DNA of 64,000 bases from Marsupella aquatica (GCA_973895155.1 OZ316895.1:17925780-17989779), one strand, 5' to 3'; counted from the first letter of the stretch, positions 21,137-58,495 are shown. Numbers and translations are program-made. Notes: generated from the sequence alone by a model not told the origin.

Positions 21137-21432
21137 TGTTAGGAATTGACTCCAGTTCCCGACATAGTTAGCTTGGTCTTACTAGGGTTAGTTAACCTTA
21201 GATTACATTTGGATAAGATCCGCTTAGTTTAGGCCCACTCATCTTGGCCCCCTTGGGGAGTATAGGCTGGAGGGAGAGCACTCTCTCCCTCATTCTTCAC
21301 ATGTACTCTCATTTGCTATGGAGCTTTCAGGAGTTTCTCCACTCGGGGTGTCTTGTCGGTGTAGCGTCTGATTGAGTGAGTCTCTCTCATGTTTCCGCAT
21401 TGCTGTCTAGTCCGGAGCCGACGGTTCTTACA
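21137..21432 (+). mobile_element. Ty1/copia solo LTR (296 bp)
   Basis: TGTTAGG…CTTACA with 5-bp TSD CACAA. Similar to the reverse complement of the copia 3' LTR at 29876-30172. Confidence 0.9.
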
Positions 21433-29875: not shown

Positions 29876-30172
29876 TGTAGGAAAACCGTCAGCTCCAGAC
29901 TAGACAGCAATGCGGAACATGAGAGCACTCAATCTCACACTACACCAACAAGACACCACGATCATGGAAAAACTCCTGAAGGATCCATAGCTCATGAGAT
30001 TGAACGTGTGAAGAATGAGGGAGAGAATGCTCTCCCTCCAACCTATACCCCCCAAGGGGAACTAAGATGTGTGGGCCTAAATAAGTGGATCTTATCCTAA
30101 ACTAACCAAGGGTCAATTAACCCTAGTAAGGCCAAACTAACTATAGTCGGGAACTCGAGTCAATTCCTAACA
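29876..30172 (-). repeat. Copia 3' LTR (297 bp)
   Basis: TG…CA ends, adjacent PPT, and homology to the solo LTR at 21137-21432. Confidence 0.9.
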
Positions 30173-30748: not shown

Positions 30749-30789
30749 AATCATCAGCCTATTCATTAAAAGTGTATTATTATTTGATT

Positions 30790-31112
30790 TATGTACATTT
30801 GGGCAATGAAAAGTGTACTTTTGGGCTTGAAAAAGTGTACATTTGGCCAATGAAAAGTGTACATTTGGGGATAGAAAAGTGTACAATTGGCCTAAAGAGT
30901 GTACATTTGGGCAATGAAAAGTGTATATTTGAACATCAAAATAGGTACATTTGGCTTTAAAAGTGTACATTTGAGTACATTTGGCCTAGAAAGTGTACAT
31001 TTGAGTGAAAAAAACATACATTTGGCTTAAAAAGTGTACATTTAAGTGCATTTGGTCTAGAAAGTGTAGCTTTGAGTGCAACAAAGTGTACATTTGGCCT
31101 AAAAAGTGTACC
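30790..31112. repeat. Left subterminal repeat array AAAGTGTACATTTGG (about 13 copies)
   Basis: Quasi-palindromic motif repeated every 20-24 bp next to the left TIR. Confidence 0.9.
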
Positions 31113-31358
31113 AACTCTTATTATAATCATTTAAAAGAAAGGAATGAATAGAAAAATCTTTTTAATTATGCAAAAAAAGCAAACATTCATATTCATAACA
31201 ATCAAAAGTTTAGAAAATGAGGAGATAGTATAACTAACACTCAATGGCATGGTCTCACATTAAAACTATTAAAATAGTAAATAACTAGTAGGTACTTGTT
31301 ACTATCTAAGTAACTATCTATTTAATAATTATTATAGCTTCACAAGTAACAACTAAGT

Positions 31359-34300
31359 CTACTTGTCCATCCTTTGGAGATAACTTTGGATAGTTTGTAG
31401 AACATTTCGAGGAATCTTCAAACCTCTGCCCGCCATGTTTTCTTCTTTCATGCCAGATTTAAAACCATACATTGCAGAATTTGCATACTGCCAATGTTGA
31501 GCGTTCTCACCAAACCCTGGATCTCGCTCCCATGTCTTAGTGGACATGAAGCAGTTTAGATACCGTGCACTCTCAGTCACATCAAGTTTAGAGTGTTTAG
31601 GCCTCCACCATTCGACTGGAAACATTGGAGCATATTGTTGAGGCAGAGGAGGGTTTGTTGGAGATGTAGTTGGGACTTCATGCTTAGGGTCAACCGAACC
31701 CAAAGCTCTCACCAACCAGAAATGACCTCCACCATTTTTATTCTCCCAGTCATCCTCTGGTCGAAGAAATACAAAGTTCCCTTGACAAATATCCTGTAGG
31801 GGAATCCACCGTCCTTGTTCTCTCTCAGCTCGAGATCCAACAAATGGTGCCGCTTGATCTTCCATCTCTTCCAAGACCTCATTTTGAAGAGCCGTCATCT
31901 CCGCATTCTCCTCATCTTCACTTGGAGGACCACTTTGATCCGGTTGGTTGACCTTGTAACCAGTGCCATGGTTAGTCTTAGGCCAAAATCCATTTTTCAA
32001 GGGAAATTGAGTACTTCCCTCCCCTTCTAGTGCAAGCCCATTTGTCAACAACTCCACAATTCTCTCCCAATATTTCACAAGAGGAAATCTTTCCTTATAT
32101 GCTATAGATGTCTCATCAGTGCAACTCCTTCTCAAAAAATCAAGGTACTTGGTAAGAAATGGGATAATCTCTTCAGATTTTTTGTGTATCTCTCCAATGG
32201 ATTTAGCTAAGGGCTCTCCACTAGGTAAAAGAAGGGAATTTGTTGTCAGATCTGTTGCCCAAATGCACCTTCCACCAACTGGAGCCCAAGCTTGCTTTAC
32301 ATGGGACTTATACTGAAATATTGGTACATTATCTCTCATAGAGAAAAGAAATGATACAGGTTTTGAGTGACCTTGAATATCTTTAACGTTGAAAGTTTGA
32401 AGATATTCTTTGTAAGATGCAACTTCTTGTATCAATCTGGGAACTGGATGAATGCTCTCACATTCCCAAACCTCTGCCATAAGAGCAAGGAGAGTTGCAA
32501 CTTCCTTGTGCTGAACTTGATATGATACCTTCGAAAAGAGTGCATCAACATCTTCGTGCGTATGACCAACCATAAGAAAAGACATTTGAACAGTTTCAAA
32601 TACTCCTCTACTCACAAGCTCACTACAAAATGCCATGATAGTCTGGTTTTTGTTATCCTTTGCTGAGTTATCCATTTGCAATGTTAGGTGCCTTGGCAAG
32701 GGCTTGAAAGATGGACTGCCTTGTTCCCCATGCATGTCCCCTCCTTGATCCTCACCAAGTTGGGTGGAGACCGTCTCCGTCTGACTCTCGGCTGCATCTT
32801 CAGAACCAATATACCTATTCATTGGAATACTCTTTGGTTCCAAATATCCCTTAAAAAATGCATCAAAGTCAAGAAGGGCTTGAAAGAAAGGTCTATGAGG
32901 TTCCAAATAAAGGCCATCCAACATGTCACCTGTCTTGTCTCCATTGTACTCTTCAAGGTCTCGAAGACACTTAGCCAAGGATGTCACCGTGAAATTGGCA
33001 TCTCCTGGCCAAAGGCCAGTGACACTAAAGTGTGCATAGACTCCTGGATCCCTTCTGTGGGTCAACATCCCTGTCAGAGCAATAGGTAGCGGCATCCCAT
33101 GACCCGAAAGCGATTTAGGAGTACTGACCATTTTTGGAATCCACGTCTTTGCTTGATCCATCTTGTCGTGAATGATGCAAAGATATTCCCCTGGATGTTG
33201 CTTAGCCATCACTCGATGAGCATAGTAAACATATCTACGTGACATTTGCTCACGAAGATGTTGCGCTCGTTTTTCTTCAATTTCAGCACGTTCTTTTTTC
33301 CTTCTTTCTCGCATCAAACTATCTTTGTATTCACAACAAAGAGTACACTTGGCAAATGCACCATCTTTATGGAAACTGAAGTTTGCGAATGATTTGCTCC
33401 AAATCTTGTACAGAGTATTCTCTGTAACTGGAGGAAGCCCCTCTTCCTTCATCTTTGTTCTCACATCTTCCAAAATCTCCAGCTTCTTGTAACATGCTGG
33501 AAGACGATATTCAGTGGAGTCTGTCCCATGAGCCCCAGCATAAGGTATATGAGGCATGGGCTCTGCATTTCGAGTCAAAAAATCCTCCAACAGAGCTCGT
33601 GCATGCAAGGTATTTGACCTTGTTTTCATGGAGCCCGTGTTTCCATGGAACCCAATTTTGCAGCCCTCCACATATCTCCTTTTGTAGTCATAATATTTTG
33701 TGTGGCTAAAGCCATGGATGATTGCAAATGCATGTCTACATACGACCATACCCTTGAGAACATGGTGCCCCTTATCACGAACATCATCTTCTCTGTAGTG
33801 GAAGAGGTTGAAAATGTGTGATGTTTTTGACTCACTAGACATCCCGTGAAATTCTATCCGAATATCTTCTATGTCTTCTCTTGGCATAGTCAGACAACAT
33901 TTCTGCTTGCAACAATTCTCTCTTTTAATTTCATCAATCGAAGCTTCCGTTGTTTTTGAAACTGCCTTGGTTTCCAATAGCCTTCTCTTCTTTTCAATCG
34001 GATCTACATGAGTCCTCTTGTTGAAATTGTATGGCCTTGTGCGCAGCATTCCCCTATCATTTACATTTGGATAGAGATCATCCCTATCCACCGACTCCAT
34101 CCTCTCTGAACCTTCAACCAAAATGTCCGACAAAAATTTCCCATTTGCAAGTAGTTTTGTTGAATCAATTCGCCACCGAACCAAAGTAATTACTCCCCTA
34201 TGGAAGTTGGGAAAGTATTGTGATTCCACCACATCTTTCACAGCAATCCCTACATGGTCCTCACCAAGCATTTCATCGTCAACCGCCGCCGTTTCTTGAG

Positions 34301-35102
34301 GCACAGTGATGGTCCCCGTGGCAACCCTATTGGTTCGATCTGAACCGATGTATAGTTCGACCAACTCTGACATCCAATTTGACCATTGGAAATAGTCACA
34401 ATTAGTTTTAGAAATTTCAACTGAGGGAGACTCCACAACAAAACTCCGCTCTATGTTGATATCATCACCCGCATCCTTCTTTGAGAAACTCTTTCTACTT
34501 CGGACATCTGCCACGTCCCAGAGAACCCATGAGTCTTTTGCCTCGTCAATTGTTTCAGCCCCACTGTGTTTGTAAGGTAAAACCCTACTCCCATGAATGA
34601 CATCAGTGACCCTCACACTGATCCGTGATTCACCAAGTAAAATGTTGTGACATCTTTCCATTGGATTTGTATTGAAAACAACTCCAAGGGCTACACAACA
34701 CCCAAAGATGAACATTTCAACCTCATCCCCTTGCCTCGGAGTGGTCGATGAGTCCTCCTCTACAATTGGATTTTTCTCCAAATTACTCTCGGGTCTATTT
34801 GAACAACTACCTACACTAATGCGTTTTTGAGAATTTGTTGTCGTGGATAGATATGCGCAAGACAAATCCCAAATAACGCAAGAATCAATGGCATCAAAAA
34901 GGTTTTCTGCCCGAGGCATCGGAAATGGTAGTTTTGTGGTTCGGTCAAAAACTTTCTCAATGAGAACTCCCATTCGATTCTCTCTCAACAATATCTTTTG
35001 AACACTATCTTGCGGGTTGACTTTTTGAACTGTCCCGCTCGCAACATCGTAACCATCATTTGTCAATATCACATTGTCTCCTCTCAAAAATATTCCGGTC
35101 AT
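31359..35102 (-). CDS. Transposase, Sola-like/DUF7869-type DDD family, 1247 aa, intact
   Basis: Candidate catalytic motifs IIHDKMDQAK, LQMDNSAKDNKN and FLMVGHTHEDVDALFS. Cys/His clusters (CCKQKCC, VCRHAF…HG, AKCTLC). Three N-terminal repeats of VA.GTV…LGE…V.V..V…W resembling TNP1/En/Spm (Transposase_23) domains. Confidence 0.85.
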   Translation of the reverse strand: MTGIFLRGDNVILTNDGYDVASGTVQKVNPQDSVQKILLRENRMGVLIEKVFDRTTKLPFPMPRAENLFDAIDSCVIWDLSCAYLSTTTNSQKRISVGSCSNRPESNLEKNPIVEEDSSTTPRQGDEVEMFIFGCCVALGVVFNTNPMERCHNILLGESRISVRVTDVIHGSRVLPYKHSGAETIDEAKDSWVLWDVADVRSRKSFSKKDAGDDINIERSFVVESPSVEISKTNCDYFQWSNWMSELVELYIGSDRTNRVATGTITVPQETAAVDDEMLGEDHVGIAVKDVVESQYFPNFHRGVITLVRWRIDSTKLLANGKFLSDILVEGSERMESVDRDDLYPNVNDRGMLRTRPYNFNKRTHVDPIEKKRRLLETKAVSKTTEASIDEIKRENCCKQKCCLTMPREDIEDIRIEFHGMSSESKTSHIFNLFHYREDDVRDKGHHVLKGMVVCRHAFAIIHGFSHTKYYDYKRRYVEGCKIGFHGNTGSMKTRSNTLHARALLEDFLTRNAEPMPHIPYAGAHGTDSTEYRLPACYKKLEILEDVRTKMKEEGLPPVTENTLYKIWSKSFANFSFHKDGAFAKCTLCCEYKDSLMRERRKKERAEIEEKRAQHLREQMSRRYVYYAHRVMAKQHPGEYLCIIHDKMDQAKTWIPKMVSTPKSLSGHGMPLPIALTGMLTHRRDPGVYAHFSVTGLWPGDANFTVTSLAKCLRDLEEYNGDKTGDMLDGLYLEPHRPFFQALLDFDAFFKGYLEPKSIPMNRYIGSEDAAESQTETVSTQLGEDQGGDMHGEQGSPSFKPLPRHLTLQMDNSAKDNKNQTIMAFCSELVSRGVFETVQMSFLMVGHTHEDVDALFSKVSYQVQHKEVATLLALMAEVWECESIHPVPRLIQEVASYKEYLQTFNVKDIQGHSKPVSFLFSMRDNVPIFQYKSHVKQAWAPVGGRCIWATDLTTNSLLLPSGEPLAKSIGEIHKKSEEIIPFLTKYLDFLRRSCTDETSIAYKERFPLVKYWERIVELLTNGLALEGEGSTQFPLKNGFWPKTNHGTGYKVNQPDQSGPPSEDEENAEMTALQNEVLEEMEDQAAPFVGSRAEREQGRWIPLQDICQGNFVFLRPEDDWENKNGGGHFWLVRALGSVDPKHEVPTTSPTNPPLPQQYAPMFPVEWWRPKHSKLDVTESARYLNCFMSTKTWERDPGFGENAQHWQYANSAMYGFKSGMKEENMAGRGLKIPRNVLQTIQSYLQRMDK

Positions 35103-35289
35103 TCCTATAACGTATTCACCTGCACAATTTTAAATGTAAAGTATTAGTTAAGAATGGTCCCAACTAGGAAGCACATAGGTGTCAACCCTCTCCAAGGACA
35201 GTGCGCATATCGGGATATCCCCATCAAGCAAAATAATAGGTCCCCAAAAAGTCCCTATCTAGCCCTAAGATCCCTGATCCCAATTTAGA

Positions 35290-35902
35290 CGTCAGATAGG
35301 GATGATCCCTGTCCAAACGACGGATAGGGTGTCTGTCAGTGTCCAAACGGCGAACAAGGATCATCCCTGCCTAAACGGCGGATAGTGTCTGTCACTGTCC
35401 AAAAGGCGGACACGCCTGATCCCTGTCCAAATGGTGGATCGGGTCTATTCCCTGTCCAAACAACTGACAGGGATGATTCAAGGAAACTTTTCATATTGGG
35501 GTCCAATCAAGCAAATACCTCAAACGGCGGACAGGGATCATCCGGAGAACGACCGCGGACACGGATCCCTATTGAAAGGGTAGACAGGGATCATCCCTAT
35601 CAAAACGGCGGACAGGGACCATCCCTATCCAAATGGCGGACAGGGATCATCCCCATCCAAACAGCGAATATGGATCATTATCCAACCAGAGGATCCAAAC
35701 GGCGAATACGGATCATTATCCAACCAGAGGATCCAAACTGTAGAGGATCCAATAAAGTGCTATAGTTCATATGGTCCTCTACAGTACTCTACGGTGGACA
35801 GGGATCATCCCTATCCAAATATTGGACAGGGATCATCCCTATCCAAACAGCAGATAGAGATGATCCCTATCCAAATAGCAAACAGGGATGACCCCTGTAC
35901 GG
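35290..35902. repeat. Array of palindromic GGACAGGGAT(C/G)ATCCCT(G/A)TCC repeats
   Basis: About 13 copies of varying completeness, many spaced 28-29 bp apart, upstream of the transposase. Confidence 0.85.
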
Positions 35903-37009
35903 ACAATTGACTCTACACACGAATTTAATGTTTGAGAAAAGAACGGTTGGATTGAGATTATCCCAATCGTGAGTTGGGCTGGGATTTTTTCACTTCAACC
36001 TTAACTTAGATATAGTAATTCCTAAATTTGCGGATATCAATGGAATATGCTACAATTCTATAATTAGGTTTAAAGTTACCTGTAATGGAAATGATTCTTG
36101 AACCCAAAACTCAATTTAGTTTATGTTGTCAAACCAAGGATTAAAATACTGTGTTGAAGGGGTAGTTATCAGTAACCTGGTAAACTAAATGCTTCAGGGG
36201 TGTGGAAGAAATTAAAACTAGATGTTCTGTCTGGAAAACAAGAGTGTCTCAATGGGGCTCCGTAATGAACGGACCTGGTTGAGGAACAGAACAAAAATCT
36301 AGAAATGAAAATACCAAATGAGGACCAGCCGGACAACCCCAAGTATCTTATACCAGTTGTTGAAGATCGCCCTTATGGATAAGGCGATGCGTGATCAGCC
36401 TTAAGCAACGGCGAGTGGATTAGGTCGGGCGACGCACTTTAGGGCAGCCGTGCATTTAGGGTTTTCCACTCGCCTCGGCCTCCCACGTGTTTAGTGTGCC
36501 TTGCCTCGCCTCGGGGGGGGGTAAAGGAGGCAGGAGGTCCCACTTGGGCCTCATTCTTCATTCCCTCCTCGCTCCTCGCTCGCTCTCCTCCTTGCTCGCT
36601 CTCCTCCTCGCTCGCTCTCCTCTCTCCTCTCTCCTCCGTCCGCTCCTCCTCTTCTCCACTCCTGCTCTTGCGCTCCTTTGCTCGCTCCTCCGCCTCATTA
36701 TCTTCCAATCTCCTTCACTCCGACGCCTTTGCACTCCTTCGCTTTGCCTCCGCACTAAAGTTTATCCCCATAGCCGCCACGTTAATTGCCCTAGATCTAA
36801 CGCTCTGCAATCCTCCACGTGTCCATAAGGCCACGTGTCACACGATGGAGCCATCCAGACCTATTCCAGTGTGTCTCATCAGTGAGCCAACAGAGGAGAC
36901 AGACCTCTCATCCATTGAGGACATGGTGGAGACGGCCCTCGAGGATTCCAGAGCCTTTCAATCGCTCAATCCAAGTGAGTATCCCAGTAACAAGTTGAAT
37001 ATTTGTGTG

Positions 37010-37412
37010 GTGGACAGAGATGATCCCTGTCCAAGTAGAGTCCAAATAGAAGATAGTCATCTTTATTAGGAATTGGACAGAGATGATCCCTGTCCAAGTA
37101 GAGTCCAAATAGAAGATAGTCATCTTTATTAGGAATTGGACAGAGATGATCTCTATCCAAATGGATGGAGATCATCCCTGTCCAATTGCATAGATATCAT
37201 TTATTTCCAAACTGACGATAGAGGATGTCCTATCAGACGATGCTGAGGACCTTTATTAGGAATTGGATAGAGATGATCCCTGTCCAAGTAGAGGATAGAG
37301 ATGATAATAACGATCGTCAGTATCCTCTCATCGAACAGAGATGATCTTTATTACAAATTGGACAGAGATCATCGCTGTCCAAATAGAGGATAGAGATGAT
37401 CCCTGTCCAATT
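37010..37412. repeat. Second array of the same palindromic repeat (intron 1 of the ParB-MTase gene)
   Basis: GGACAGAGATGATCCCTGTCCAA variants, about 8 copies, including a 63-bp tandem unit. Confidence 0.85.
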
Positions 37413-39127
37413 TTTGTCAATTACAAAAGTAAGATTTCCAAACTAATATGCCTGGATGGGACTATTGCAGGGAGCTATCTAAATGCATTGAAACCACAGA
37501 TTTCAGACGCAGATTGCTCCGAGGGAGTCTTGTTGGAGCAGAGCAGAGAAGATTTTCGTTGGGGCCTTGAGTTCTCCAGAGTTGATTTTGATTTCCTTAG
37601 CACGTCAACGAGACGGGATCCCATTTTGTGCATAAAGGTCAGAACTGCAGATCAGGAGACTCTTGTACTCGGACCTGTAGTCTTCATTGGAATTGAAGGA
37701 AGAGGGTTTGTTTCCGTCATTTCTTGAGCTCCATGAAAGGATACGATGGGTTAAACTACATCTACCATCAAAGGCGTATTCTTCAGAATTCAATGTTGAG
37801 TGGTCTGCAGCTGGAGAACTTGGCTTGTTGGCAATGGGCTTTTTCCCTAAGTTGTATTCAACTCAAAAGGTGACTCTTGGAGTGAAGGGGATTCTTCCAC
37901 TTGACATCATGTATGGGTTTCAATATGTGAAGCTTAATATGCATAAACACCAAGGGAATTATACATTTCCGGTGACATGGATTTTAAATAATTTGCTTGA
38001 CAAGGCAGGATTCCTATCATCGGAATCAGGTGTTTTCCTTGACAAGAAAATTATATTTGCGGAGGAGTTTGCAATGGATAATGCAAAAAAGTGGGTAGAA
38101 TCATTAGCCAAGCCTACAAGTGTTGCACCAGTAGTGGTGAACAAGCCTCCAGTAGTTGTTAACAAAGAAGTTCCGAAGCCTAGAAAAATATCTCAGGAGA
38201 CAACAACCGGGACTGCAGGAACAACGGTCGGGACAGCCTCCAAACAAGTGGTAGGGAAGCAAAGACAAAGAGAGAAGAAGGAGCGCAAGAAAACTGAGAC
38301 ACAGCCGAAGGAACCCGAGAAGAAGCCAGTAAAGAAGAAACATAAAACTGACAAGACTATTGCGCGGTCAACTCCGACGGACGTACAGATGCTCCCAGAG
38401 GATGAGGGAGACAAACTTGATGCCCCGGAGGAGAAGAAGGTCTTAGAAGGGAATGATGTTCTCCAAAGAATAGAGCAGTACTATACTTTTGGGATAAATG
38501 AAATATTTTCTATTCCAGTGGAGAAAATTTATCCAGCTCCGGCAAGGTTATGTTACAGGATGCTCAACAGTGCCCATGTGAAGCACATAGCCGAATCCAT
38601 GGTGAAAAACCCTGGACATGAACCTCACGTTGCGGACCTTCTTCCTTACAATCCAAAACTTAGAAAGCTGCTTCATTTTGACAGCACGGAGAACGACCGC
38701 AAAGACCTTCTTGCAGGAGTGAAGAAAGGCGAGATTGTTTTCCTTGCCGTCAGTGGGCAACATTCTGCTAGGGCGGCCAAATGGGTTCTTGAGTGGGCCG
38801 AAACTGATGCCAAGCTCACAGTTTTGGCAAAAAAGTTAAAATATAGGAAGGCTAGATTATTGTCAGACCTTACGCCATCGGCTATACTGGTTGAGCACTC
38901 AATGAGATCAAATGCCATCAATTCTTCGATGGTGTTTCAATCGTGCTTCAAAGATACAATTGTTCATGCAAGAAAACAATTCCTTGAAACTGGAAGACCA
39001 AGAAAGCCAAAGCACGGGGACAACAAATCAAACGCCCAAGAGAGTCAAAAATTTCAGGTGAGAAACATTTTTCTTGTCTCTGTCCAAGAGTGTGACCGTC
39101 CATTACATTGATTTTAGTTCAATATGT

Positions 39128-39322
39128 TTTTGGTTATGACTTGGATGGAGATGGTCTCTGTCCAAGAGTGAGACCTTCTATTCTGTAGATTTTACTTCAT
39201 TCTACTTTTGGTTATGGCTTGGATGGAGATGGTCTCTGTCCAAGAGTGAGACCTTCCATTCTGTAGATTTTACTTCATTCTACTTTTGGTTATGGCTTGG
39301 ACGGAGATGGTCTCTGTCCAAG
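39128..39322. repeat. 78-bp tandem repeat (about 3 copies) in an intron, each containing the palindrome variant TTGGA(T/C)GGAGATGGTCTCTGTCCAA
   Basis: Copies at about 39141, 39219 and 39297, inside the GT-AG intron 39058-39395. Confidence 0.85.
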
Positions 39323-41924
39323 CAAGCGATTGTGTGTTGTCAAATCTCATTGATTGTAGATAACTTACAACATTCTCCCTAATTTTTGACTGTAGGATTA
39401 TCTGGCATTGGCAAGGATGACCATGGGGAGAAAAGACTTGAAAAATGTATACTGGTTACTTTTTGCCGAGAATGATCTTTTCGAGTTATGGCGGTTAGTG
39501 TGCCAGATGTGGATTGATGGAAAACTTCCTGATGGGGCTGGTACACAGGGAAACAAAAGGTCCGAAAAGGCGATAACCGTCGCCATGTTTCGTTGTTTTG
39601 ATGGTGAAATCTCAAATAGAGATTTGACCAGAATTTTGAACAAGGTGAAGTCGGGTCAGATTTTATTGAAGAAAGATCCGACTAATAAGTCAGATGTTCC
39701 AGCGATGGAGGAGTTTGCAAAGGAGGTGAAGATATTGATCAAATTGAAGTCTCTTATTGGAGATTACTACTTCAAGAAGGATCCAAAACACTTCCCAGCA
39801 GATACTGATTGGGCTAAAGTGATTGAAGTCCTCCCATTATTGGGTCCCGATTCGGAGTTGAACAGGTGCCGAAGAGCAGCTGGCGATGTATGGTTGACAA
39901 ATTTGTTGAAGTCGAATCATACAAAGGAGAGTGAGATATTGCCAATGACATTGGTGATGCGTCTAGATGATATTTACTATCAAAAGTTTGGCGGTGGGAC
40001 AAGTTCTCGGACCCAGCCGTGGGTCACATTTTTTAGTAACAACCTAATGAAGACTGTGGATCCGGAGTCATTGGAAGAACAATCTCCAACATGCCCTCTT
40101 GCAATTGTTGATTTCAGCCGACTTCAGCAAAAAGAGTGGACTGAAGTTGAGATTTTGGTCCTCTTCCAATATATAGTATAGCTACCACGGAATCCTACCA
40201 TTGTTGTGATGATAACTGTCCATCCGGGTTATCTTGTACTGAATGTCCTAAGCGCTCTTCGTAAATTAGGACATTCAAAAACTCTGAGTATTCACATTGA
40301 GTATGGGAGTTATTACCGAGATGATCAACCTCACCCTCAGGACTCATGTTGGAAGGGAGGAATAGAAGAGGTTATCTTTGCCGGAATTTCTCGCGAGGAG
40401 AACGTCAGCTGGGATGAAGTGTTCAAGCCCAACCAAATGAAACCAAAATGGGTGTACGGTGAAAAGGATACTGATTTCGTGGTTGAGAAGGTCAAGGGAA
40501 AGGGAAAGGCCAAGGACGCGGAGGAGGAGTCATTGCATGAAGATCTAAAAAATATGATGACCCCAGAAGAGGCGGCAATCCTTCTGCACATGGCACCTCG
40601 ATTTGAGACTGTCGGCGCTCGGGGTGGGTGGGTGAATCCTCACGCCAAACCCACACGGATGATCCAAAAGATCATCCAAACACTGTCCGAGCCGGGGGAT
40701 TTGATTCTTGACTTTTTCTCTGGCGGTCAAGTGATGAAGGCATCCCTTTTTTCTCAACGTGAATGTTTTGTTTATTGTGACTCTCAACATGAGAGACATT
40801 TTGTGGAAGCATACGCTTCGTTCCTTTGTGAGAAGGTTCCCACCATCAAAGATCGTTATGATCGCTATGTCGGTGGAAGTTCTAGACATTGGGAACCCTC
40901 TTCTGCCGCTGTTGCTATTGAGGATGAATCAGATGGTGATCAAGAAGATGGAGCTGACCAATCAGTCAAAGACGATGGGCCATCAGAGGCATACGTGAAG
41001 AATTTGGATGACCAAGTTGGCGAGGGTGAAAATATTGACCTTGTGGACGACGATATGATTGTTGGATCTGCACCTTGTAGTTCACCAATTACAGATGCTG
41101 CCCCCATGGGCCCCAACGAGGGCCAATATGATGATAACTTGGATAGAGATGGTCTCCATCCACAAGTGTCTGGACAAGAGATGGAAGTTGATACTTTTGA
41201 AAAACTTTCTTCAAACAACCTTCTCAATCAAGGTGCGGAGAGGCATGGTGAGTCCAATGAACTCGACACATTGGGATTGAGACCACAGCCCATCCAAATA
41301 GCTTACATTCCCGTGAATGAAGCACGTGCATCCACGACTGCTGACAACCAGGCAGGTGCTTCAATTTGTCCCAATACACTCTTTTCCGCTTCTGATGACA
41401 AATTGGTGTTTGTTCGATCACAATCAAGAAGTCCCGTTATCCTTCCACTCTCAAAAAAGAAAGGGAAGAGAGTAGGATCAACTGGATATAAGTCACTTGA
41501 ATATGATTGTCAATGTTACGTGTGGAAAAGTGGACCCGATGTAGGAACTGAAGTTGCGTTGGATGCTGCTCAATCAATTTTGAACAATGACTCGTACAAA
41601 AAGCACAAGAAAGATCCAACTTATAGAAGTGGAGAATTGGGATTGATAACTCCGGTTTGGTCTGCACCTTATTGGGTAGAGGAGAGTACCTCCGATGTCA
41701 ATTATGAGATCCAACAAGAACTCGGTGATGATATCTTGATTGATGAATATGGATCGCATTGTTAGCCACTTGAGGTCTAGATTGAGCGATGTGACCTTAT
41801 CAATTTGATATAATATAGTCTGTATAATTATACTTCAAGTTTAACAATTAGAGCATCAGTATCAATATCCATCTCCTCTTTACGGTTTCTCAATGAATCT
41901 GATCAGTATGCAGATATATTTTCT

Positions 41925-43058
41925 TTGTGGTTGGCCACTTGTGTTGGATTGACAGAGATGATCTCTATCCAAACTTCAAATGTGGTTTTATCTCTAAGAT
42001 TGGTATTTGTTGCACTTGCAGAACCAAGACCTTGTTCCATCAAGCGCAAATTGCTGATTTTGGATCTTAACAAAATACTTTGGGATTCAGTTGAATTCCA
42101 AAGCAAGGGCAAATCCAGAAATGTTGTGATCCCAAGTGGAGTGCATTGGGATAGAAAAAATGGAATTAGTCGCATGTACACAGAAAGGCCAGGGCTCCAT
42201 GAGTTTCTAAAGTTGGTTTTTGACCGATTTGACGTTGCAATTTGGACATGTGCTGGGGTACATCGAACAGTGAAAATGCTGAACATGATGTTCACTCCTG
42301 AGGAGCGGTTGAAACTTAAGTTTGTATTCACACAAGTGGAAGCCTTTGACACAGGCATTCAAAGGCGTGACATTACAAACGGGAAGGCAAATGTGCTACT
42401 GAAGGATTTTCGGGTGGTATGGAGTGGATTTGGAAATCTATATGATGAAACCAACACCCTCCTTGTGGATGACTCCCCCCTTAAGGCATTTGCCAACCCA
42501 AGCATGACCGGACTATTTCTAGTGCCCTACACGCATGCCAATGGTGGAGATAATTTTCTTCTAACAATTCTTTGGCCTTGTCTTGAGAAACTATCCCATG
42601 CAAGTGACATTAGATGTTATCTTCTTCTTAACTCTCCACTGTGGTCTCTATTGCACATAAAGAGAGACAAGGTAAAAAATGAAATTACTTATGATCAACT
42701 TAGTAAGAGATGTGCAACAAAAATTTGGAAGTCACAGTTTACGCATAGTGTGTTGGACCTCAACAGCAATGAGATTCCTTGGAACGTGAAGCATCGTATA
42801 TGTAGTTTACGTCCTGAGGCAGAACTTGACGATGCACTTGTCACGTCACTTGCTAAAGCATTTGTAGGAAGGGACTATTCAGGTCCGCATAGAGAAAATC
42901 CCAGACACTTTTTGCGGGAGATTATAGCCATTAGGAACAACACCACCAAGTTTCAGCTCCCTGAAGATAAAGGGACTTGCAACCGTGACACTAGGGTAGA
43001 TAGTAAAGGAGACAGGGGCACGTGCTCAAATACACATTGTAAGGAGCACTTTGTTTAG
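41925..43058 (+). CDS. FCP1/NIF-family HAD phosphatase-like protein (true start probably via a splice acceptor near 42021)
   Basis: KLLILDLNKILWDS (motif I variant), ERPGLHEFL…FDVAIWTCA, LLKDFRVVW, TNTLLVDDSPLKAFANP. Confidence 0.85.
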   Translation: MWLATCVGLTEMISIQTSNVVLSLRLVFVALAEPRPCSIKRKLLILDLNKILWDSVEFQSKGKSRNVVIPSGVHWDRKNGISRMYTERPGLHEFLKLVFDRFDVAIWTCAGVHRTVKMLNMMFTPEERLKLKFVFTQVEAFDTGIQRRDITNGKANVLLKDFRVVWSGFGNLYDETNTLLVDDSPLKAFANPSMTGLFLVPYTHANGGDNFLLTILWPCLEKLSHASDIRCYLLLNSPLWSLLHIKRDKVKNEITYDQLSKRCATKIWKSQFTHSVLDLNSNEIPWNVKHRICSLRPEAELDDALVTSLAKAFVGRDYSGPHRENPRHFLREIIAIRNNTTKFQLPEDKGTCNRDTRVDSKGDRGTCSNTHCKEHFV

Positions 43059-43321
43059 AGATATGACTCATGTTAAGCCCCTTAGATAGAAGAAATACAT
43101 TGTAAATTTGGAGATAATTGTATATTATTTTATAATCTATTTGGAGTTATGTCATTTTGTTCACACATATTCAAGGGTTTATTTGTGCTGAAATGTTTTT
43201 ATAAGTATGATCTCTATCCTACTATTCTTTGTGAATTCATAAATAATGATCTCTATCCTATTATTCTTTGTGAATCAATAAATGATATAATATGTATTAT
43301 TTATTAATATAATACTTATAT

Positions 43322-43412
43322 GATTTGGCCTATAAAGTGTACATTTGGAGACCAAAAAGTGTACATTTGGGTTTCTTAAAGTGTACATTTGGGGACATGA
43401 AAGTGTACATTT
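43322..43412. repeat. Right subterminal repeat array AAAGTGTACATTT (4 copies)
   Basis: Same motif as the left array, in the same plus-strand orientation. Confidence 0.9.
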
Positions 43413-43467
43413 CAAGACTGATTTGTGAACAAAAGAAAAGACACTTTTAATGAATAGGCTGATAATC

Positions 43468-44966: not shown

Positions 44967-47602
44967 TGTGACACGGGTAACGTGTCACTTGACCGAACCC
45001 AGGTCGTAGATTAGGACTTATACGGTCATTAGGACCGTAGCCATAGTGTAGAATAGCACGTATAGCCGTCTGTTGCCATTATGATTAGATTAGGAGTAGG
45101 TTAAGATGATCGAATCATTACGAGTTAAGGAAGGGATTATTACGCGCGACCGAGGTACGGTGGCGGCAGCGGAGTAAAAATCAGTTAGAAGAAACACGCT
45201 TGGACCGAGGTGCCAACTTCAGCTCGCTATCAATGACCAAAACGGCCTGGCCTTCTCACGCTCGGGCTCATCCTGGCACCTCCATAAGAGAGGAGCCGAT
45301 GGTGCTGCGGGCCATTTGCTCATGTCTACCTTTCTTTGACTTCGCGGACGTTGCCACCCACTCGCCCTGCTGATCAAATCGAGTCGACCTTTACAAGGAG
45401 ATTATCGAGGGAGAAGAGCGGAATGTGGCAAGATTTAGTTAGGACGAGCGAGGCCTCCACGAGACAGAGGACCAGCCGGGTGGGAACGCGGACTCAACGA
45501 ACCGGACTACGAGGTTAGTATGACCCTCACAGCCTTGGGATTTTGGACCTTGTTTGGCGAGGTAGGTGCTAAGTTCTCCGAGACTTACTGGTACTCTTGC
45601 CCCGAGAAATCCGCTTACGAACGAAGATACGCGAGGCTGGTGACCAAGGTAGCACTGGTTAATTGCGAAAGAACAGCCATCACCAAGGCTCAGCAGACAA
45701 TGGGAAGCGGCGCGTAATCTTACGTTCCTCGGGGAAAGCTCCAACGCCTTCAACTGGGATATGGCTACCCCGATATCACCAGTGCCTCAACCGATGACCA
45801 TCGGAGTACCGCCGAACCAGTCCCAAGTCCGTCCAGTAATCAACACGGAGTGTTCTTTGGGTTCCGAGCGAGCTAGTCCGCAACTCAAACAGTGTCCTTG
45901 TAAGCGGCCAAGGACTACGACGGCCCCCGAATCAACACAGACCGACGCCGCGCCTGCACCTGCCCCGGCAAACCCCCCGACCAACCAGACCCGATGGCCC
46001 CCGGATAACCCGAAGTCCAACTTATTACAGGTAATCCGCGTCCCCGAAGTGGTTTGGATCGCGATCAAGAAACTCGAACATGCAGACTATCTCAAGGAGC
46101 ATCAGTTGGAGCAGTTCGCCCACTTGCTATGGAGGCCGTGCGCCACCGGGCCGAAGGAGATTTGTGAGTTCATCTCCAATTTCGACACTGACGCGTCGAC
46201 CACCAAGGTTTCGGGGCAGGCCTTATCACTCACGGAGCATCGGTTAACGCAAATCTTCTGCCTACCAACCGGGCCGGTGCCGGTGGAAATCCGAATTTGG
46301 GATAAGGAGTATACGCCGCGACACTTCAAACCCGAGGGTAAGACGGACAACGGATACAAGCAGGGGGCGTGCACCAACTTAACCTGTATGGAGCGGCTTA
46401 ACTTCATACGGACTACCCTACACATGATTGAGCCACGATCCGAGATTTCCCTCTGCACGATCGTGCAGGTGGAACAGTACAAGCGACGAAACTGGGCCCA
46501 ATTCTTCTACCGAAGATTCTCGGGGGAGCTGAAGCGGGCTCAGGGTGGTATGGCTATTGGGGGGAAGACTTACTTAGGAAGTCATATCGCCATTATCCTC
46601 GCCTGGTACAAGGCACGGCGGGAGGCCAGAGGAAAAAATATGGCCACCTCAGCCTCGGGTAATGTCACCCCCGCCCCAGAGGAGGCAACCCCGACTACGC
46701 GGACTACCGTCCCTCGGGCAAACCCCGAGCCGGAAGCCCCGACTAATACTCCGCCACCTCCTCCTGTGGAAATTCCACCGCCCCCTTCCGTTGAGCCTCC
46801 ACTACCCGCAGTGCAACCACCCCCAATCCCTCCACCACCTGAAGATATCTTCCCCTCCCCAGCGCTGACTACAGAGGAGATCGTTGCTCCACCCGAGGAG
46901 CCACCGGTACCCGAGAGGATGGAGGACTACCAAGTAGCCCCGGGGACCATGGCCTACGACCTGGTCCAGAAGTTTAGCCAGACTATGTCTGGGGAGCTAG
47001 CAACATACATCGGACAACAAGTCTCGGCGTACTTTCAACCAGCCTTCTTCATGTTAGAGCACCAACCACGGATCGTAAGCCGCCTGGAAGAAGATCTCAT
47101 GGCGAAGGGGAATGAGATCGGGCGCCTCCAGATGTTGGTAGAGCACCTCGAGGAGGAGGCAACAACCCGACGCGAGGAGTTAGTCCGCACCGTCAAATAG
47201 AGGGACGGACTAAACCAGGAGCTAAGCGGAGCGCAAGTCGAACTCAAGAAGCTGGATGACACTGTGCTTCAATTACGCTCAGGGCAGCACAGCAGGTGGC
47301 TAGTCTCTCCGCCGAATGAGATAAATTGCTAGCACAGGACCAGATCCATCGCAACTCCATCGACCAGCTCAATTTGGAGGTAGCACGGCTCCAGACCAAG
47401 GTCGATGAAGCTGCAAATGAGGCGGAGGAGGCGGTACGGGACAACAAGGCCTTGCAGGACCGCATTACCCTGCTCATCCTCCAGCGGGGAAAACCTGGGC
47501 CCACCTCTAATCAAGGCAGCTCGAGGTCTCGTCCCGACAAGGGGACCAGCCTTGGTCCAACCACCTCACACACGTAAGGGGTGGTTAGCGAAGGGTGGAA
47601 GC
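44967..47602 (+). mobile_element. 5' part of an ORF-bearing large gypsy-type LTR inserted in the copia integrase, itself interrupted at 47603
   Basis: Starts TGTGACAC where the copia frame breaks. Promoter-like CATAAGAGAGGAGCCGAT (about 45283) matches TATAAAAGGGAGCCGAT of the 6981-10943 LTR. Carries a homologous ORF. Confidence 0.75.
45520..47577 (+). pseudogene. LTR-encoded accessory protein (fragmented: 45520-45717, 45761-47200, 47326-47577)
   Basis: Homologous to the 7875-10469 gene at the N-terminus (GFWTLF/RF*TQF), in the central domain and in the coiled-coil tail. Confidence 0.8.
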
Positions 47603-50600
47603 TGTGGTGCGTCCCATGGCTCCCTAAACCCAAGAAACCCCCCAGCTCAAGCCGATTCCCGCAGGTTTTGTGCTTGGCGAGGCCGTTTCCGCGGCTTAGC
47701 GGCATGGGACGCTGCTAACCTTCTACTACTACTATTAACATTTTACACACATATACTGGACAGATCCTTCATCGGGTCATGAGATACGTAGCCGGCCTAA
47801 TATAGGCCTTCCCCTGTCTTCCCCTGTCTTCCCCTCCGTCTTGTTAGGTATGTTTGGATTCCGCCGCCGGAATGATCCCCAATAGGCTTGGTTAAGCCGC
47901 TAAGACCTCTCTCAGCTCGACACATCCAACTCTTACTCCCCTGCTTACTTTCCTTCCTTCTGTTGATGTGGGCACTCTTCACACAAGTTAATGCGACACA
48001 CAAATAGCAAAATGACTCATTCTGACTGAGTCATACCATGCACTTGCCATACAAACAGTACATCTCATACACAAGTTCTGCGAACTAAGCCGTGAGGCCA
48101 ACTCTATTCAGCTCTTAGGCATGAGGAAACAAGAATATACACAAGGGTCACTGTATGACTAACCGAGAGCTTCTCGTACTACTTGATCCCAGCCCGGCTG
48201 GTGCAAACTAAAAACTTGCTAAAGAAGAGGCCCTGAGCTCCCCGCTGCCCAGGTACTTATCCTGGTAGTGGATCCGCCATTCTTTGCATCGTAAGCCTAA
48301 TCTACTTAACAGTAATCTACTTGCCCGAATCTACCTATGTACAGCAAGGCAGGAGCACAAGTGTTGCTCCTACCAGTGGGACCGCAATCCCACTAAGCTA
48401 AGTGTCAGGGCCGCTCCTGGTTCTGATCCTAATCCTAAACGTGGAGATCCGCGCCCGCCCTGCCCACTCACGCCTCCTCCCTCCACGTCCGCCCTCCCTA
48501 AAAGGAACGGCGCCCTTGCACCGTCACGACACCGGTGGTGGATCCTTAATGGACGCCCCCAACGCTTCCTCCTCAGCCACTGCCGTAGGCTCATTCCCTG
48601 ACAGATTACCTGCCCTTGACTGAGTCAACTCTCCATCGGCCTGATTGGGTCCACCATCGGCGTCGGCATCGGCTCGAGAATCGGTTACGGCCTCAGCCTC
48701 GGCTACGGTCTCCCCGGCCTGCTCAAGAGGCGGATCTGGAATACTGGCCTCCTTACTGAGTAGTTCGGCTTGGGCCGCACCATCCCTACCTGTGATCATA
48801 GCGGGATCTATTGCCGTATTCATGTCGGAGGATGGTGCTGGTTCTACCTCTTTGGTCACCACGGCTTGTGGAGTCGGATTACTCCTTGACCCTGAAGGTT
48901 TCCGCTTTTTCTTCTTTTCTGGTTCGGCAGCTGGTCCCTTCCCCTTCCCACTTACCTCCGGCACTGGTGCAGTTGGCGCGGCTTTTTCTTCGGCCAGTAC
49001 CACTCCTGGTAACTTGGTTGCCCCAATTGGAGTTGGGCCTGATGAAGACAAGCACCTAAATACTGCGGCTTGTTTCTTCAGCCGCTCCGTTTGGTTGTCG
49101 GCCCGCCGCTGGAGGTTCTCCATCTTCCTCGTGATTTCCTCCAACTCCTCCTGGGTCTCATCCAGGTCCTTGCGTGCCTCCTCTAGTTCCTTCTGGGCTT
49201 CCTCCCGTTCTTGTTTCAAGGTAGTCCTCTCCTCCTGGGTTGCTTTTAGCTCCTTGTCGAGCTCTGCAATGATGACAGACTCCATCTGGTTCATCTTGGC
49301 GTAAGTCTGTTCGAGCATCTCGTCCTTCTCCCTTAGGTCGGCCTTAAAGCTGGCCGTCAGGGACGCAAGCTCCTGCTGCAGCGCCATAATCCCTTGATAG
49401 GATTTCCCTAACTCGGCCTCCTTCTGCTCAAGGGCTCCGCGGATTTTCTCGAGCTCCCCTTTCAATGCCCATTCCTTTCTTTGGGTCTCCGCCATGGCCC
49501 GGCTGTTGGCTGTTATGTGGGCCTCCTCTGTATTCTTCAGCTCTTGCTTCCACTTCTCCCTCTCTTTGATCGTGTCGGCCAACTCTTCCTGTGTCTGAGT
49601 CAGTTTATCCTTGATATTCTGATTATCAGCCTGCGCGGTGTCCAACTGCCCCTGCATGATGTTCAGCTCATGTCGTTTAATCCGCAGTTCATCTTGGGCT
49701 TTCTTGGCCGCCCTTAGATCTTCAATCTCGGCTTCCATCCTCCTAAGCCGCCGAATGACCTCGTCCTTCTTGCTTCTCTCTAAAGCCACCGCTTCTTCTA
49801 ATTGGTGCTTCTCCAACTGCTCCCTATGGAAAAAGGGTCCTACCTCCAACTCCTCTCCAAAGATGCCGAGCGCAAGTTCCCCACACATCTCACCATACTC
49901 CATGGCTCTATTCTTAGCGTAGGTGGAGTAAGTAGAAGTGATCGGCATCGCCCATCGCGGCCTCTGCTCCCAAGCCGTCCTGCGGATCTCTTCAATCGTG
50001 GCTAGAGGTTTGCTTCCTTTTTTGGCTAGCCGCCTGATGTCCTCCGGCCAATCTCCTCCTGGTAAATCCTTTTCCTTAGCCAGGGCGGCCTCCTCCTCCT
50101 GCTTGATTCGCTCCTGAAATTCCTGCACCGTCTGTTTTATGCCGTCGAAGCTCGGGGGAGCAACATCTGGTGGGGGAGACTCAGGGCTACTCTGCTGGTT
50201 GGGGTCCCCTCGCACTACCCTTGGAAGTGTGGGGACAAACCGGCCACAGGTCCTTACTCCTGGAACGTGATGGTCCGACCCATAGCCGGAATTATCATGG
50301 TTGCAGTCCTCCACTGCCTCCTCTACCTCTTGGACGTCCGGCTTCTCCCTCTCCTCTTCGTCGGTAGGAGCTTCAGGCAATTCTGCCTCAGATTCGGAGC
50401 TTGAGGTTCCCACGTACATTCGAACACTTGGCTTGGATTCCGGCCTGATTCTCTCCTTGTCTCCAGCAAAGGGGTTTTCTCTTGTGAGCCGGTGTAGGCC
50501 TACCTCTGTAGTAGTGTCCTGCATTGTTGCCGTTGCCGTTGTTGTTGCCGATGCCGATTTCTTTTCTTTTTCCAGTAGTTTCAGCAGACTCTGCATGCCT

Positions 50601-52271
50601 GGTTGCTGCATCGGCAAGTCCTCCTTCCTGGGCCTAAACACCTGCTCGATCGTAGGACTAACAGGTGGTTGAGGCTTCTCAGCCAACGGCCTCGGCGTTG
50701 GAGCTTCCTCGGGTGCCCTTACCTGCAGGGGAAGTACCGGGGCAAAAGTCTGACCTCTGGCATACCGGCACAACAGCGGCATGTGATAGCCCAGCCGCGA
50801 CACGCTCCCCATGCCGATTACCTGCTGCTCCTCCTTTAAGATCTTCTTCAATTGGTTGAGGAGGTACCCGTTGTAGTCCCGGCTTGGGTCTGGCCTTTCT
50901 GCCAGATAGACCTGTGCCTTGCCGATCTCTGCCCTCGGCAAGTTACAATGCATGGTCACCCGCAAGAAGTCGATCATCTCTCCTATGTGCGGGTTGGTGC
51001 AGGTGTTCCGGAAGAAGCCATTCTTCGTTGATGGCCCGGGGAACGACCGGAACTCCTTGTCAGGCAAGGTCTTCCTGGTATCAACTTTGGTCTTATTGCC
51101 TATCGGCAGGCCAAACACTTCGGCAATTACCTTGGGAGTAAGATAGAAATCCTTCCCATATATCCTCGTGCAATTGGTTTCGGGTTCCCATGACCCCACG
51201 AATTCTAATAGGTCTGACTCCGGTACCTCCGGCTTCAGCCATGGTAATCTTACAAAGGCCTCCAAGCCGGATCCGGCCATGAAGCCTTGGTACTTCTTGG
51301 TCTGCATGGCCGTAAAGCATGCATCCTCCTCCCGTGCAAAATGTAGTTGCACCTCCACCGGTAGGGTTGCCGCCCAGCCCTTCCAGGTGTCATCCTTGGT
51401 TGGAATGGCCTTGATGGGATCGACCTCCTCCTCTTCGGCTTCTCCCTGCCTCCTGCTCTGCTGCTCGGCTGGCTTCTTTGGTGCCGCCGACCTCGTTCTT
51501 TTTGCCGGGGTGGCTTCATCGTTGACGGCTCCCTTCCTCTTCATCTTTGTTGTCGTGGAGGTTTCTCCTAGCACCGTTGCCTGGGTCCACCTTTCCGTGC
51601 TACCCTTTAATTCCCAGTGTATGTCGTTGCAGTTCTTGATGGCCTCTCGGATGCCGACGACGCTGTCTTTGCAAAACAAAAGATTGTCGAATTGATTGGA
51701 AGTAGGCGTCCACAGAAACTCGTCCTTGATGAGTTCGCCTCCTAAGAAAGCCGTCTTCTGCAGCTCCCACAATCGAGCGAGCTCCTGCCATTCTCGAGCT
51801 GCCCTTTCTGATTCCTCGTCCTCGTAAGTCTTGATGTACTCAGTTGCCCGTTCGAACAGGCATCCCCATAAATGTGCCGCTTGATTGACGTTGCTCATAC
51901 CCTCCTTAGGTCGATCGTCGGTATCTACTCTCTCCCCGAGTGCTTGCCTAAGCAGCTGACAGTAGTTGGCCTCCCGTAGTCGTCTGCCTAGTTCGTGCTC
52001 GCAAATGAGCCACCATCTCCTGCAAGCGCTCCTTACCCCTCTCCTCTGCCTGTCCTTCTTCCCGTTGATCCTTCCTAGCCGCCGACGCTTAACGCGCCCT
52101 AACCCTAATCGGGTTTTCACCCTCAGCCTTACCTCCGGCCTCAGCCCGGGTTCCATGGTTGCCCCTAATTGTTTATATTTTCCTTGTTTTGTCCCTATAC
52201 TAAGGTGTTCCTAGGGTGCCTTCCTGCTTTACCCACTTAACCGGCCGAGTGATTCCTGTCTAGGCATCACA
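47603..52271 (-). repeat. 3' LTR (4669 bp)
   Basis: TGTGGTGCG…GGCATCACA. Near-identical to 58496-63154 apart from scattered substitutions and a 10-bp indel. PPT adjacent. Confidence 0.95.
48524..52156 (-). CDS. LTR-encoded 1210-aa accessory protein (central plant-transposon-type globular domain + long coiled coil), intact
   Basis: The ORF lies wholly within the 3' LTR. GLEAFVRLPW…LLEFVGSW…IYGKDFYLTPKVIAEVFGLP aligns with the other LTR ORFs. The real start may be the later MSNVNQ. Confidence 0.85.
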   Translation of the reverse strand: MEPGLRPEVRLRVKTRLGLGRVKRRRLGRINGKKDRQRRGVRSACRRWWLICEHELGRRLREANYCQLLRQALGERVDTDDRPKEGMSNVNQAAHLWGCLFERATEYIKTYEDEESERAAREWQELARLWELQKTAFLGGELIKDEFLWTPTSNQFDNLLFCKDSVVGIREAIKNCNDIHWELKGSTERWTQATVLGETSTTTKMKRKGAVNDEATPAKRTRSAAPKKPAEQQSRRQGEAEEEEVDPIKAIPTKDDTWKGWAATLPVEVQLHFAREEDACFTAMQTKKYQGFMAGSGLEAFVRLPWLKPEVPESDLLEFVGSWEPETNCTRIYGKDFYLTPKVIAEVFGLPIGNKTKVDTRKTLPDKEFRSFPGPSTKNGFFRNTCTNPHIGEMIDFLRVTMHCNLPRAEIGKAQVYLAERPDPSRDYNGYLLNQLKKILKEEQQVIGMGSVSRLGYHMPLLCRYARGQTFAPVLPLQVRAPEEAPTPRPLAEKPQPPVSPTIEQVFRPRKEDLPMQQPGMQSLLKLLEKEKKSASATTTATATMQDTTTEVGLHRLTRENPFAGDKERIRPESKPSVRMYVGTSSSESEAELPEAPTDEEEREKPDVQEVEEAVEDCNHDNSGYGSDHHVPGVRTCGRFVPTLPRVVRGDPNQQSSPESPPPDVAPPSFDGIKQTVQEFQERIKQEEEAALAKEKDLPGGDWPEDIRRLAKKGSKPLATIEEIRRTAWEQRPRWAMPITSTYSTYAKNRAMEYGEMCGELALGIFGEELEVGPFFHREQLEKHQLEEAVALERSKKDEVIRRLRRMEAEIEDLRAAKKAQDELRIKRHELNIMQGQLDTAQADNQNIKDKLTQTQEELADTIKEREKWKQELKNTEEAHITANSRAMAETQRKEWALKGELEKIRGALEQKEAELGKSYQGIMALQQELASLTASFKADLREKDEMLEQTYAKMNQMESVIIAELDKELKATQEERTTLKQEREEAQKELEEARKDLDETQEELEEITRKMENLQRRADNQTERLKKQAAVFRCLSSSGPTPIGATKLPGVVLAEEKAAPTAPVPEVSGKGKGPAAEPEKKKKRKPSGSRSNPTPQAVVTKEVEPAPSSDMNTAIDPAMITGRDGAAQAELLSKEASIPDPPLEQAGETVAEAEAVTDSRADADADGGPNQADGELTQSRAGNLSGNEPTAVAEEEALGASIKDPPPVS

Positions 52272-58426: not shown

Positions 58427-58471
58427 TACCTACGCTTCCGTTCTAACTTCATATCTCACGGCTTAAGAAAT

Positions 58472-58491
58472 GCCCCCTCCATCTAGCGCCA
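58472..58491 (-). other. Primer binding site
   Basis: TGGCGCTAGATGGAGGGGGC lies 4 nt downstream of the 5' LTR. The cognate tRNA was not determined. Confidence 0.8.
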
Positions 58492-58495
58492 AAAA

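Follow-up and report, generated by a model that had tools for sequence, protein, structure and literature searches.

The closest described counterpart to the gene considered here is found on Sola1-1_Ec32 of Ectocarpus, whose accessory gene joins a ParB-like domain to an N4C/N6A methyltransferase (MTase) domain, and whose product has been proposed to bind and methylate its own element (PMC12477816). The present study concerns an accessory gene of about 1360 codons (36845..41765, plus strand) on a DNA transposon of 12,711 bp (30753-43463) in a 64,000-nucleotide stretch of DNA from the liverwort Marsupella aquatica; this whole analysed stretch is called the window, and positions are counted from its first letter. 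An earlier note on this DNA had described the gene as a phage-type fusion of ParB-like and beta-class MTase-like parts, interrupted by introns and carried on a plant DNA transposon, and our analysis supports this description; it also finds terminal inverted repeats (TIRs) and a target site duplication (TSD) on the transposon. We suggest, with about even confidence, that the accessory protein is a catalytically dead, phage-derived ParB-MTase fusion which marks its own transposon through a 25-bp palindrome, in a manner resembling the VANC system.

Sola1-1_Ec32 and the window transposon share a protein that unites both domains (1104 amino acids there, about 1360 codons here), an accessory gene lying on the strand opposite to the transposase in head-to-head orientation, a large element, and a 4-bp TSD. 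They differ in size (21.5 kb vs 12.7 kb here) and in their TIRs (282 bp and imperfect vs 23 bp and perfect here), and the window transposon belongs to a liverwort lineage and carries a third, NIF-like gene; moreover, an active MTase is predicted for the Ectocarpus element, which we compared by its published description (PMC12477816). The architecture of the accessory gene is thus not new, as it is already published for Sola1-1_Ec32; what our analysis contributes is the land-plant family, a predicted family-wide catalytic loss in both domains under selection, and a specific candidate site. The word "palindrome" is absent from the main text of the Ectocarpus paper (PMC12477816), and our literature search returned no paper that combines a Sola transposon with a liverwort MTase, though other published work may describe the motif loss, the palindromes or liverwort members.

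Several other systems share single aspects of this locus. Fusions of ParB_N with N6_N4_Mtase (PF02195 + PF01555) are typical of phages (PMC12704722); they have the same domain order as the window gene, and the nearest ESM Atlas MTase models are mostly viral, whereas the window gene has introns, three extra domains and changed catalytic motifs. The beta-class enzymes CcrM, M.RsrI, M.MboIIA, PvuII, N4CMT and DN4MT1 share its permuted fold and motif order, but they have DPPY or SPPY, FxGxG and an in-register motif II acid, which are missing in the window family. All of these enzymes are encoded by host genes, and N4CMT tags transposons for silencing (PMC8885841). DIRS1 retrotransposons carry DAM-like MTase domains with the catalytic residues substituted in all copies (PMC4738411) and so likewise retain an amino-MTase fold without its catalytic residues, although the MTase group is another one, the domain is part of a retrotransposon polyprotein, and there is no ParB domain; the eukaryotic amino-MTase clades examined from that paper, which was the only one that our search for plant transposons joining ParB with N4-cytosine MTases brought up, include no liverwort transposon clade (PMC4738411). 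Finally, VANC21 of Arabidopsis binds a short motif that recurs in tandem within introns and intergenic stretches of its own element, VANDAL21, where it lifts silencing (PMC5735166). Here, too, an accessory gene on a DNA transposon is accompanied by a short motif that is private to the element and has accumulated in its non-coding DNA, but the host element is Mutator-like, the motif has 9 bp and is non-palindromic, and the function has been demonstrated; we draw the likeness without any claim of homology.

The accessory gene was modelled with the following parts:

36845..36974, plus strand: candidate exon 1, with ATG and GT donor
36975..37470, plus strand: intron 1, phase 1, GT..AG, containing 7 palindrome copies
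37471..39057, plus strand: exon 2, encoding an N-terminal domain, a Lys-rich linker and the ParB-like domain; frameshift at 37720
38500..38870, plus strand: ParB/DndB-like domain, Box II reading GQHS and not GxxR
39058..39395, plus strand: intron 2, phase 0, GT..AG, containing 3 palindrome copies in 78-bp units
39396..40001, plus strand: exon 3, all-helical domain between the ParB-like and MTase-like parts, with a predicted local distance difference test (pLDDT) score mostly >85
40002..40868, plus strand: beta-class amino-MTase-like domain, with DFSR as motif IV and DFFSGG as motif I
40869..41765, plus strand: remainder of exon 3, an acidic linker and a C-terminal domain (~41377 to stop) that is conserved in the alignment

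The peptides quoted in the earlier note all lie where it had placed them: the Box-I-like peptide at 38554, AVSGQHS at 38746, and motifs IV, VI, VIII, X and I at 40098, 40194, 40362, 40632 and 40704, respectively. Its beta-class motif order is confirmed by profile and structure searches. The Pfam family N6_N4_Mtase (PF01555) matches the window protein at E 4.9e-6 (27.1 bits vs a cut-off of 26.7; the score is under the cut-off in all six first relatives), and the family profile matches M.RsrI at E 1.5e-9, while identity to solved beta-class enzymes is about 13-16%. A structure model of exon 3 built from 48 sequences (pLDDT 87) aligns with CcrM at Z 17.2 and a root-mean-square deviation of 3.8 over 217 aligned positions (residues 203-491), followed by BceJIV and MboIIA (both 15.8), RsrI (15.3) and PvuII (15.2), and Foldseek concurs with the beta-class assignment. 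The Rossmann MTase fold is thus found in the model, in its permuted form with motif IV preceding motif I. For the MTase part of a Calypogeia relative, 8 of the 10 listed ESM Atlas rows are virus-dominated N6_N4_Mtase clusters, and in rows 1, 2 and 4 (template modelling, TM, scores of 0.63-0.65) 29, 12 and 11% of the members are fused to ParB_N. Taken together, the models argue strongly for a beta-class amino-MTase fold.

For the ParB-like part the modelling argues for a ParB-like fold with moderate strength. In the ESM Atlas, the model of this part of a Calypogeia gene model (P0009) has TM scores of 0.50-0.60 to ParB_N and DndB clusters, which is below the bar for naming, and Pfam DndB matches two of four relatives at E 0.03 and 0.05; searches of NCBIfam, PHROGs and PDB sequences returned no ParB match for this part. 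In the ParB/Srx-like motif that had been proposed, the arginine of GxxR is absent and Box II instead reads GQHS. By features, the Atlas clusters nearest to the P0009 ParB-like part are eukaryotic (fungal DUF3723, sponge, mollusc), and DUF3723 is a conserved gene of Starship elements (bioRxiv 2021.12.13.472469); this hints at one widespread, transposon-borne ParB-like family of eukaryotes.

The catalytic motifs were examined in a family alignment of 48 rows, 29 of which cover motif IV and 34 motif I. The first residue of motif IV is D in 28 of the 29 rows and E in the remaining one, but none has proline at either P place or an aromatic residue at the Y place, where 24 have R. The word [DSN]PP[YFW] does not occur in any of 81 fetched proteins, 72 of which were found via the MTase domain or clusters. 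Motif I reads DFFSGG in 23 of 34 rows and FxGxG in none, and its loop is one residue shorter when compared to a phage enzyme; the in-register residue at the position of the ribose-binding (motif II) acid is acidic in 0 of 29 rows. On the ParB side, Box II is GQHS in all eight sequences covering it (six if one isoform and one cluster mate are subtracted). In structures of N4CMT and CcrM, the motif IV residues grip the target amino group and stack on the flipped base (PMC10406627), replacement of S and Y of the N4CMT SPPY by Ala abolishes activity (PMC8885841), and an R-to-A change in Box II of the ParB fold abolishes nucleoside triphosphate binding (PMC12704722). Since PPY, FxGxG and the in-register ribose acid are missing across the family, we predict that methyl transfer has probably been lost family-wide, and both modules look, from these sequences, like pseudo-enzymes retained for binding. 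A catalytically dead DNA-binding protein, which the earlier note had given as a caveat, is now the best reading, as motif IV lacks PPY in every row that covers it.

Even so, purifying selection continues to act around motif IV: of the variants listed for this region, 16 of 21 are synonymous vs 23% expected (binomial P 4e-7, which is optimistic because the variants are linked).

The family extends beyond Marsupella. While a word search yielded six relatives for each of the two domains, a full search gave 59 at E <= 0.001; among 30 hits looked up, the 11 carrying an organism name were five from Calypogeia fissa and six from Riccia sorocarpa, with no algal names among them. The ParB-like part is ~60-61% identical to that of a Calypogeia relative. 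Both domains are seen in one polypeptide in P0082, a single open reading frame (ORF) of 1009 amino acids that includes the ParB-like, helical, MTase-like and C-terminal regions, its ParB-like part being 38% identical to that of the window protein. A search for longer fused forms via the ParB alignment found none in 7870 candidates, P0082 having surfaced afterwards as a cluster member. We found no relatives in viral contigs or prokaryote genomes, and tblastn against phages gave only weak matches in 15 records for the region of motifs X-I, the lowest E being 6e-3, and only noise for the ParB-like part.

The earlier note had further proposed that such transposons might be a vehicle or source of eukaryotic N4-methylcytosine (4mC) and N6-methyladenine (6mA) enzymes, and for this we find no support: Marchantia DN4MT1 has TSPPY (bioRxiv 2021.02.12.428880) and rotifer N4CMT has SPPY (PMC8885841), neither of which occurs in the 81 fetched proteins, and structurally N4CMT (Z 14.5-14.9 with the exon 3 model) is no closer than the bacterial beta-class enzymes (Z 15-17). 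The family also cautions against tallying PF01555 matches in liverwort genomes as 4mC writers.

The site that we believe may be read by the accessory protein is the inverted repeat TTGGAYAGRGAT-S-ATCYCTRTCCAA, of 25 bp. At <=4 mismatches it is present in 20 copies, all within the transposon: 7 intergenic, 7 in intron 1, 3 in intron 2, and one each before the NIF-like gene, in the transposase ORF and in exon 3. The copies outside the accessory gene are, apart from the one in the transposase ORF:

35292..35896, unstranded: intergenic palindrome arrays, 7 copies, mostly with a 28-bp period
41948..41972, unstranded: one palindrome copy ahead of the third gene, in a spacer that is probably an intron

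Eighteen of the 20 copies are thus in the non-coding 30% of the transposon, and the two copies within reading frames, at 34067-34091 (transposase) and 41139-41163 (exon 3), leave these frames unbroken. The remaining 51 kb of the window contain no copy at <=4 mismatches, and none was matched in any of 30 sequence shuffles; at <=6 mismatches, 26 are inside the transposon and one is outside. GATC is present in 15 of the 20 copies, and the core of the palindrome is kept while the unit length varies (25, 28, 63 and 78 bp). We consider it somewhat more probable than an even chance that this palindrome is the binding site of the accessory protein.

How the accessory protein could act through this site can be outlined as follows. 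ParB and MTase parent folds both act as dimers, and we thus suggest that the palindrome would be read by a dimer: the protein would dimerise, recognise the 25-bp palindrome and coat its own transposon. The helical domain is a candidate for DNA reading, and hence a candidate reader of the palindrome. Coating would mark the transposon as self, probably so that it stays expressed or mobile. By analogy to VANC, the protein may counter silencing or help transposition, although our confidence in such a role stays clearly short of even. The separate 22-bp repeats near the transposon ends could serve the transposase. The window copy, being unable to make the protein, would be served in trans. Should the protein bind the palindrome and lift silencing, the family would provide a second VANC-like means of escaping silencing, unrelated to the first and assembled from phage parts. 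The family offers a concrete land-plant test of the bind-and-methylate idea, with a defined 25-bp candidate site in a young multi-copy family, and the prediction that we offer is of a methylase dead family-wide yet under selection.

A number of points weigh against this reading. The motif IV aspartate and DFFSGG are strongly kept, and in 15 of 32 rows a D lies one residue past the place of the motif II acid, so that S-adenosylmethionine binding or unusual chemistry is possible. Gene-wide, only 15 of 36 coding changes among the best 40 of 640 variants are synonymous; many of the gene-wide variants listed are in the linker, and many are private to the window copy. The AlphaFold model of the ParB-like part (7 sequences, pLDDT 49) is poor and gives no meaningful fold match, though this is no evidence against ParB. 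The palindrome pattern was derived from the same copies that it then counts, many of which arose via tandem duplication (28-, 63- and 78-bp units) and are not independent; for these reasons, it is the contrast between inside and outside that we take as evidence, and not the copy number. Finally, nothing ties the palindrome to the accessory protein in particular; its reader may be the transposase, the product of the NIF-like gene or a host factor.

Among the alternatives, the one that survives best has the MTase-like domain, though dead, acting as a scaffold or decoy, similar to METTL14 or the inactive MTase domains of DIRS1, which would pair with or block an active host MTase, the palindrome being read by another protein. 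Both kinds of pseudo-MTase have been described (PMC4738411), and the fold also matches METTL3-METTL14 chains; however, no partner has been identified, the palindrome lies within both introns of the accessory gene itself, and the ParB-like fusion partner points to DNA, and we thus regard this explanation as unlikely.

Less probable still is an active MTase with a non-standard site (DFxR) that would write 6mA or 4mC on its own transposon, for instance at the central GATC of the palindrome. It would be in keeping with the intact fold, the nearly invariant aspartate, the conservation of motifs X and I, the purifying selection and the frequency of GATC among the palindrome copies, and methylation has been proposed for the Ectocarpus element (PMC12477816); on the other hand, it would have to do without the prolines and the stacking aromatic in all 29 rows, with a shortened motif I loop, and with a ribose acid that is out of register. 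We give a similarly low weight to a broader, phage-derived self-recognition system of liverwort transposons, in which a ParB-type dimer at parS-like palindromes would bring a DFxR pocket to read, shield or write an amino-methyl mark at the GATC core; if true, the plant lineage known for its use of 4mC would have a further layer of 6mA/4mC biology, owned by transposons.

We consider it improbable to a further degree that the palindrome serves the transposase or a host factor, or arose through tandem slippage as a by-product, and that the gene assists transposition structurally (end pairing, target choice) without playing an epigenetic part. The copies are indeed largely in tandem units, and the transposase ORF and exon 3 hold one each, but the core stays constant despite the changing unit length, and distinct subterminal repeats are present at both ends of the transposon. 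That the gene is functionless, decaying captured cargo, as the frameshift and stop of the window copy and the mostly fragmentary annotated liverwort relatives might suggest, is very improbable in view of the other copies, nearly all of which have neither lesion, the synonymous excess, the open relative of 1009 amino acids, and the family's occurrence in Calypogeia and Riccia.

To return to the gene model, introns in correct phase had been proposed, and both do have GT..AG ends. For intron 2, the 34%-identical relative L001 shows a GT-AG intron of 109 nt that interrupts the same codon boundary, and P0009 and P0082 read across this position. Intron 1 is more weakly supported, by its splice signals and by relatives aligning to the start of exon 2 (E 6e-4), and exon 1 has no match in the single relative compared. 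When joined as modelled, the three exons encounter a stop at codon 129, caused by an extra base in exon 2 at 37720. Only a single TAG had been given as lesion in the earlier note; it is found at 40179-40181, but the frameshift had been missed. Contigs were drawn from 8 sequencing runs of five organisms, all of the runs with part of the window and 3 of them with half or more. None of these runs is recorded as RNA, and the 15 of 74 joints that were listed include no junction of either intron, which has no bearing on splicing. In X1 and X2 the extra base is absent throughout the contig depth, in X3 from 90% and in X4 from 96% of it, and the TAG position is a sense codon in 17 of 17 covering contigs (3 runs; X6 has no contig over it). 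As both the base at 37720 and the TAG are missing from nearly all other copies, the window copy is a dead member of a multi-copy family, with two lesions that nearly all the others lack; since each contig covers only part of the gene, the existence of fully intact copies elsewhere is inferred. A CT-rich, microsatellite-like tract (36565-36700) immediately upstream of the candidate start codon is probably 5' untranslated region.

The ends and the other genes of the transposon are:

30749..30752, unstranded: left TSD, AATC, identical to the four bases 3' of the right end
30753..30775, plus strand: left TIR, 23 bp, 23/23 identity to the right TIR
30792..31111, unstranded: left subterminal array, made up of 22-bp units with the core AAAGTGTACATTT
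31359..35129, minus strand: transposase ORF, DUF7869 (Pfam E 3.5e-43), open, 1256 codons stop to stop
42022..43058, plus strand: third gene, NIF / UBLCP1-like, HAD phosphatase-like (Pfam NIF E 4e-16; UBLCP1 E 9e-8)
43329..43412, unstranded: right subterminal array of 22-bp units
43441..43463, minus strand: right TIR, pairing with the left TIR
43464..43467, unstranded: right TSD, AATC

In silico excision of the transposon together with one AATC restores an unbroken copia reading frame, and the right flank has an RVT_2 match. A 3-bp TSD (AAT) was rejected, as it would require a mismatched terminal base. The 4-bp length is that of Sola1, but AATC, at this single insertion site, departs from the AWWT preference; the TSD of Sola1-1_Ec32 likewise deviates from AWWT (PMC12477816). 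The 22-bp subterminal units are likely transposase sites. The transposase, which lies head-to-head with the accessory gene on the opposite strand, probably has an additional upstream exon. Its acidic motifs are at 33170, 32678 and 32567, and we take them to resemble those of the Sola type; our literature search found no paper on DUF7869.

The start of the third gene follows a putative acceptor AG (42021), and one contig (run X2) bridges 41726-42080, from the end of the accessory gene to the NIF-like gene. Its DxDxT motif reads DLNKI, with the second Asp absent, and the protein may be a third pseudo-enzyme of the transposon. Contig depth over this gene is several-fold above that over the rest of the transposon, which may reflect derivatives retaining the right end only.

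Elsewhere in the window, a separate 2.8-kb element at 14091-16874 has inverted ends of 268 bp that are 96% complementary, and contains short ORFs without a Pfam match. The segments 21137-21426 and 29884-30172 share ~290 bp of inverted similarity and resemble two copia long terminal repeats (LTRs) in opposite orientation. The region 47603-64000 contains a pair of gypsy-type LTR elements that are nearly identical and stand 10,883 bp apart; both have a long additional ORF that belongs to no known family (48524-52210; the second is split by a stop at 61015), and an inverted match of 856 bp connects 53437-54292 with 63145-64000. Related-looking ORFs at 8205-10427 (740 amino acids) and 45653-47200 (515 amino acids), which have no Pfam match, are probably extra ORFs of LTR retrotransposons as well.

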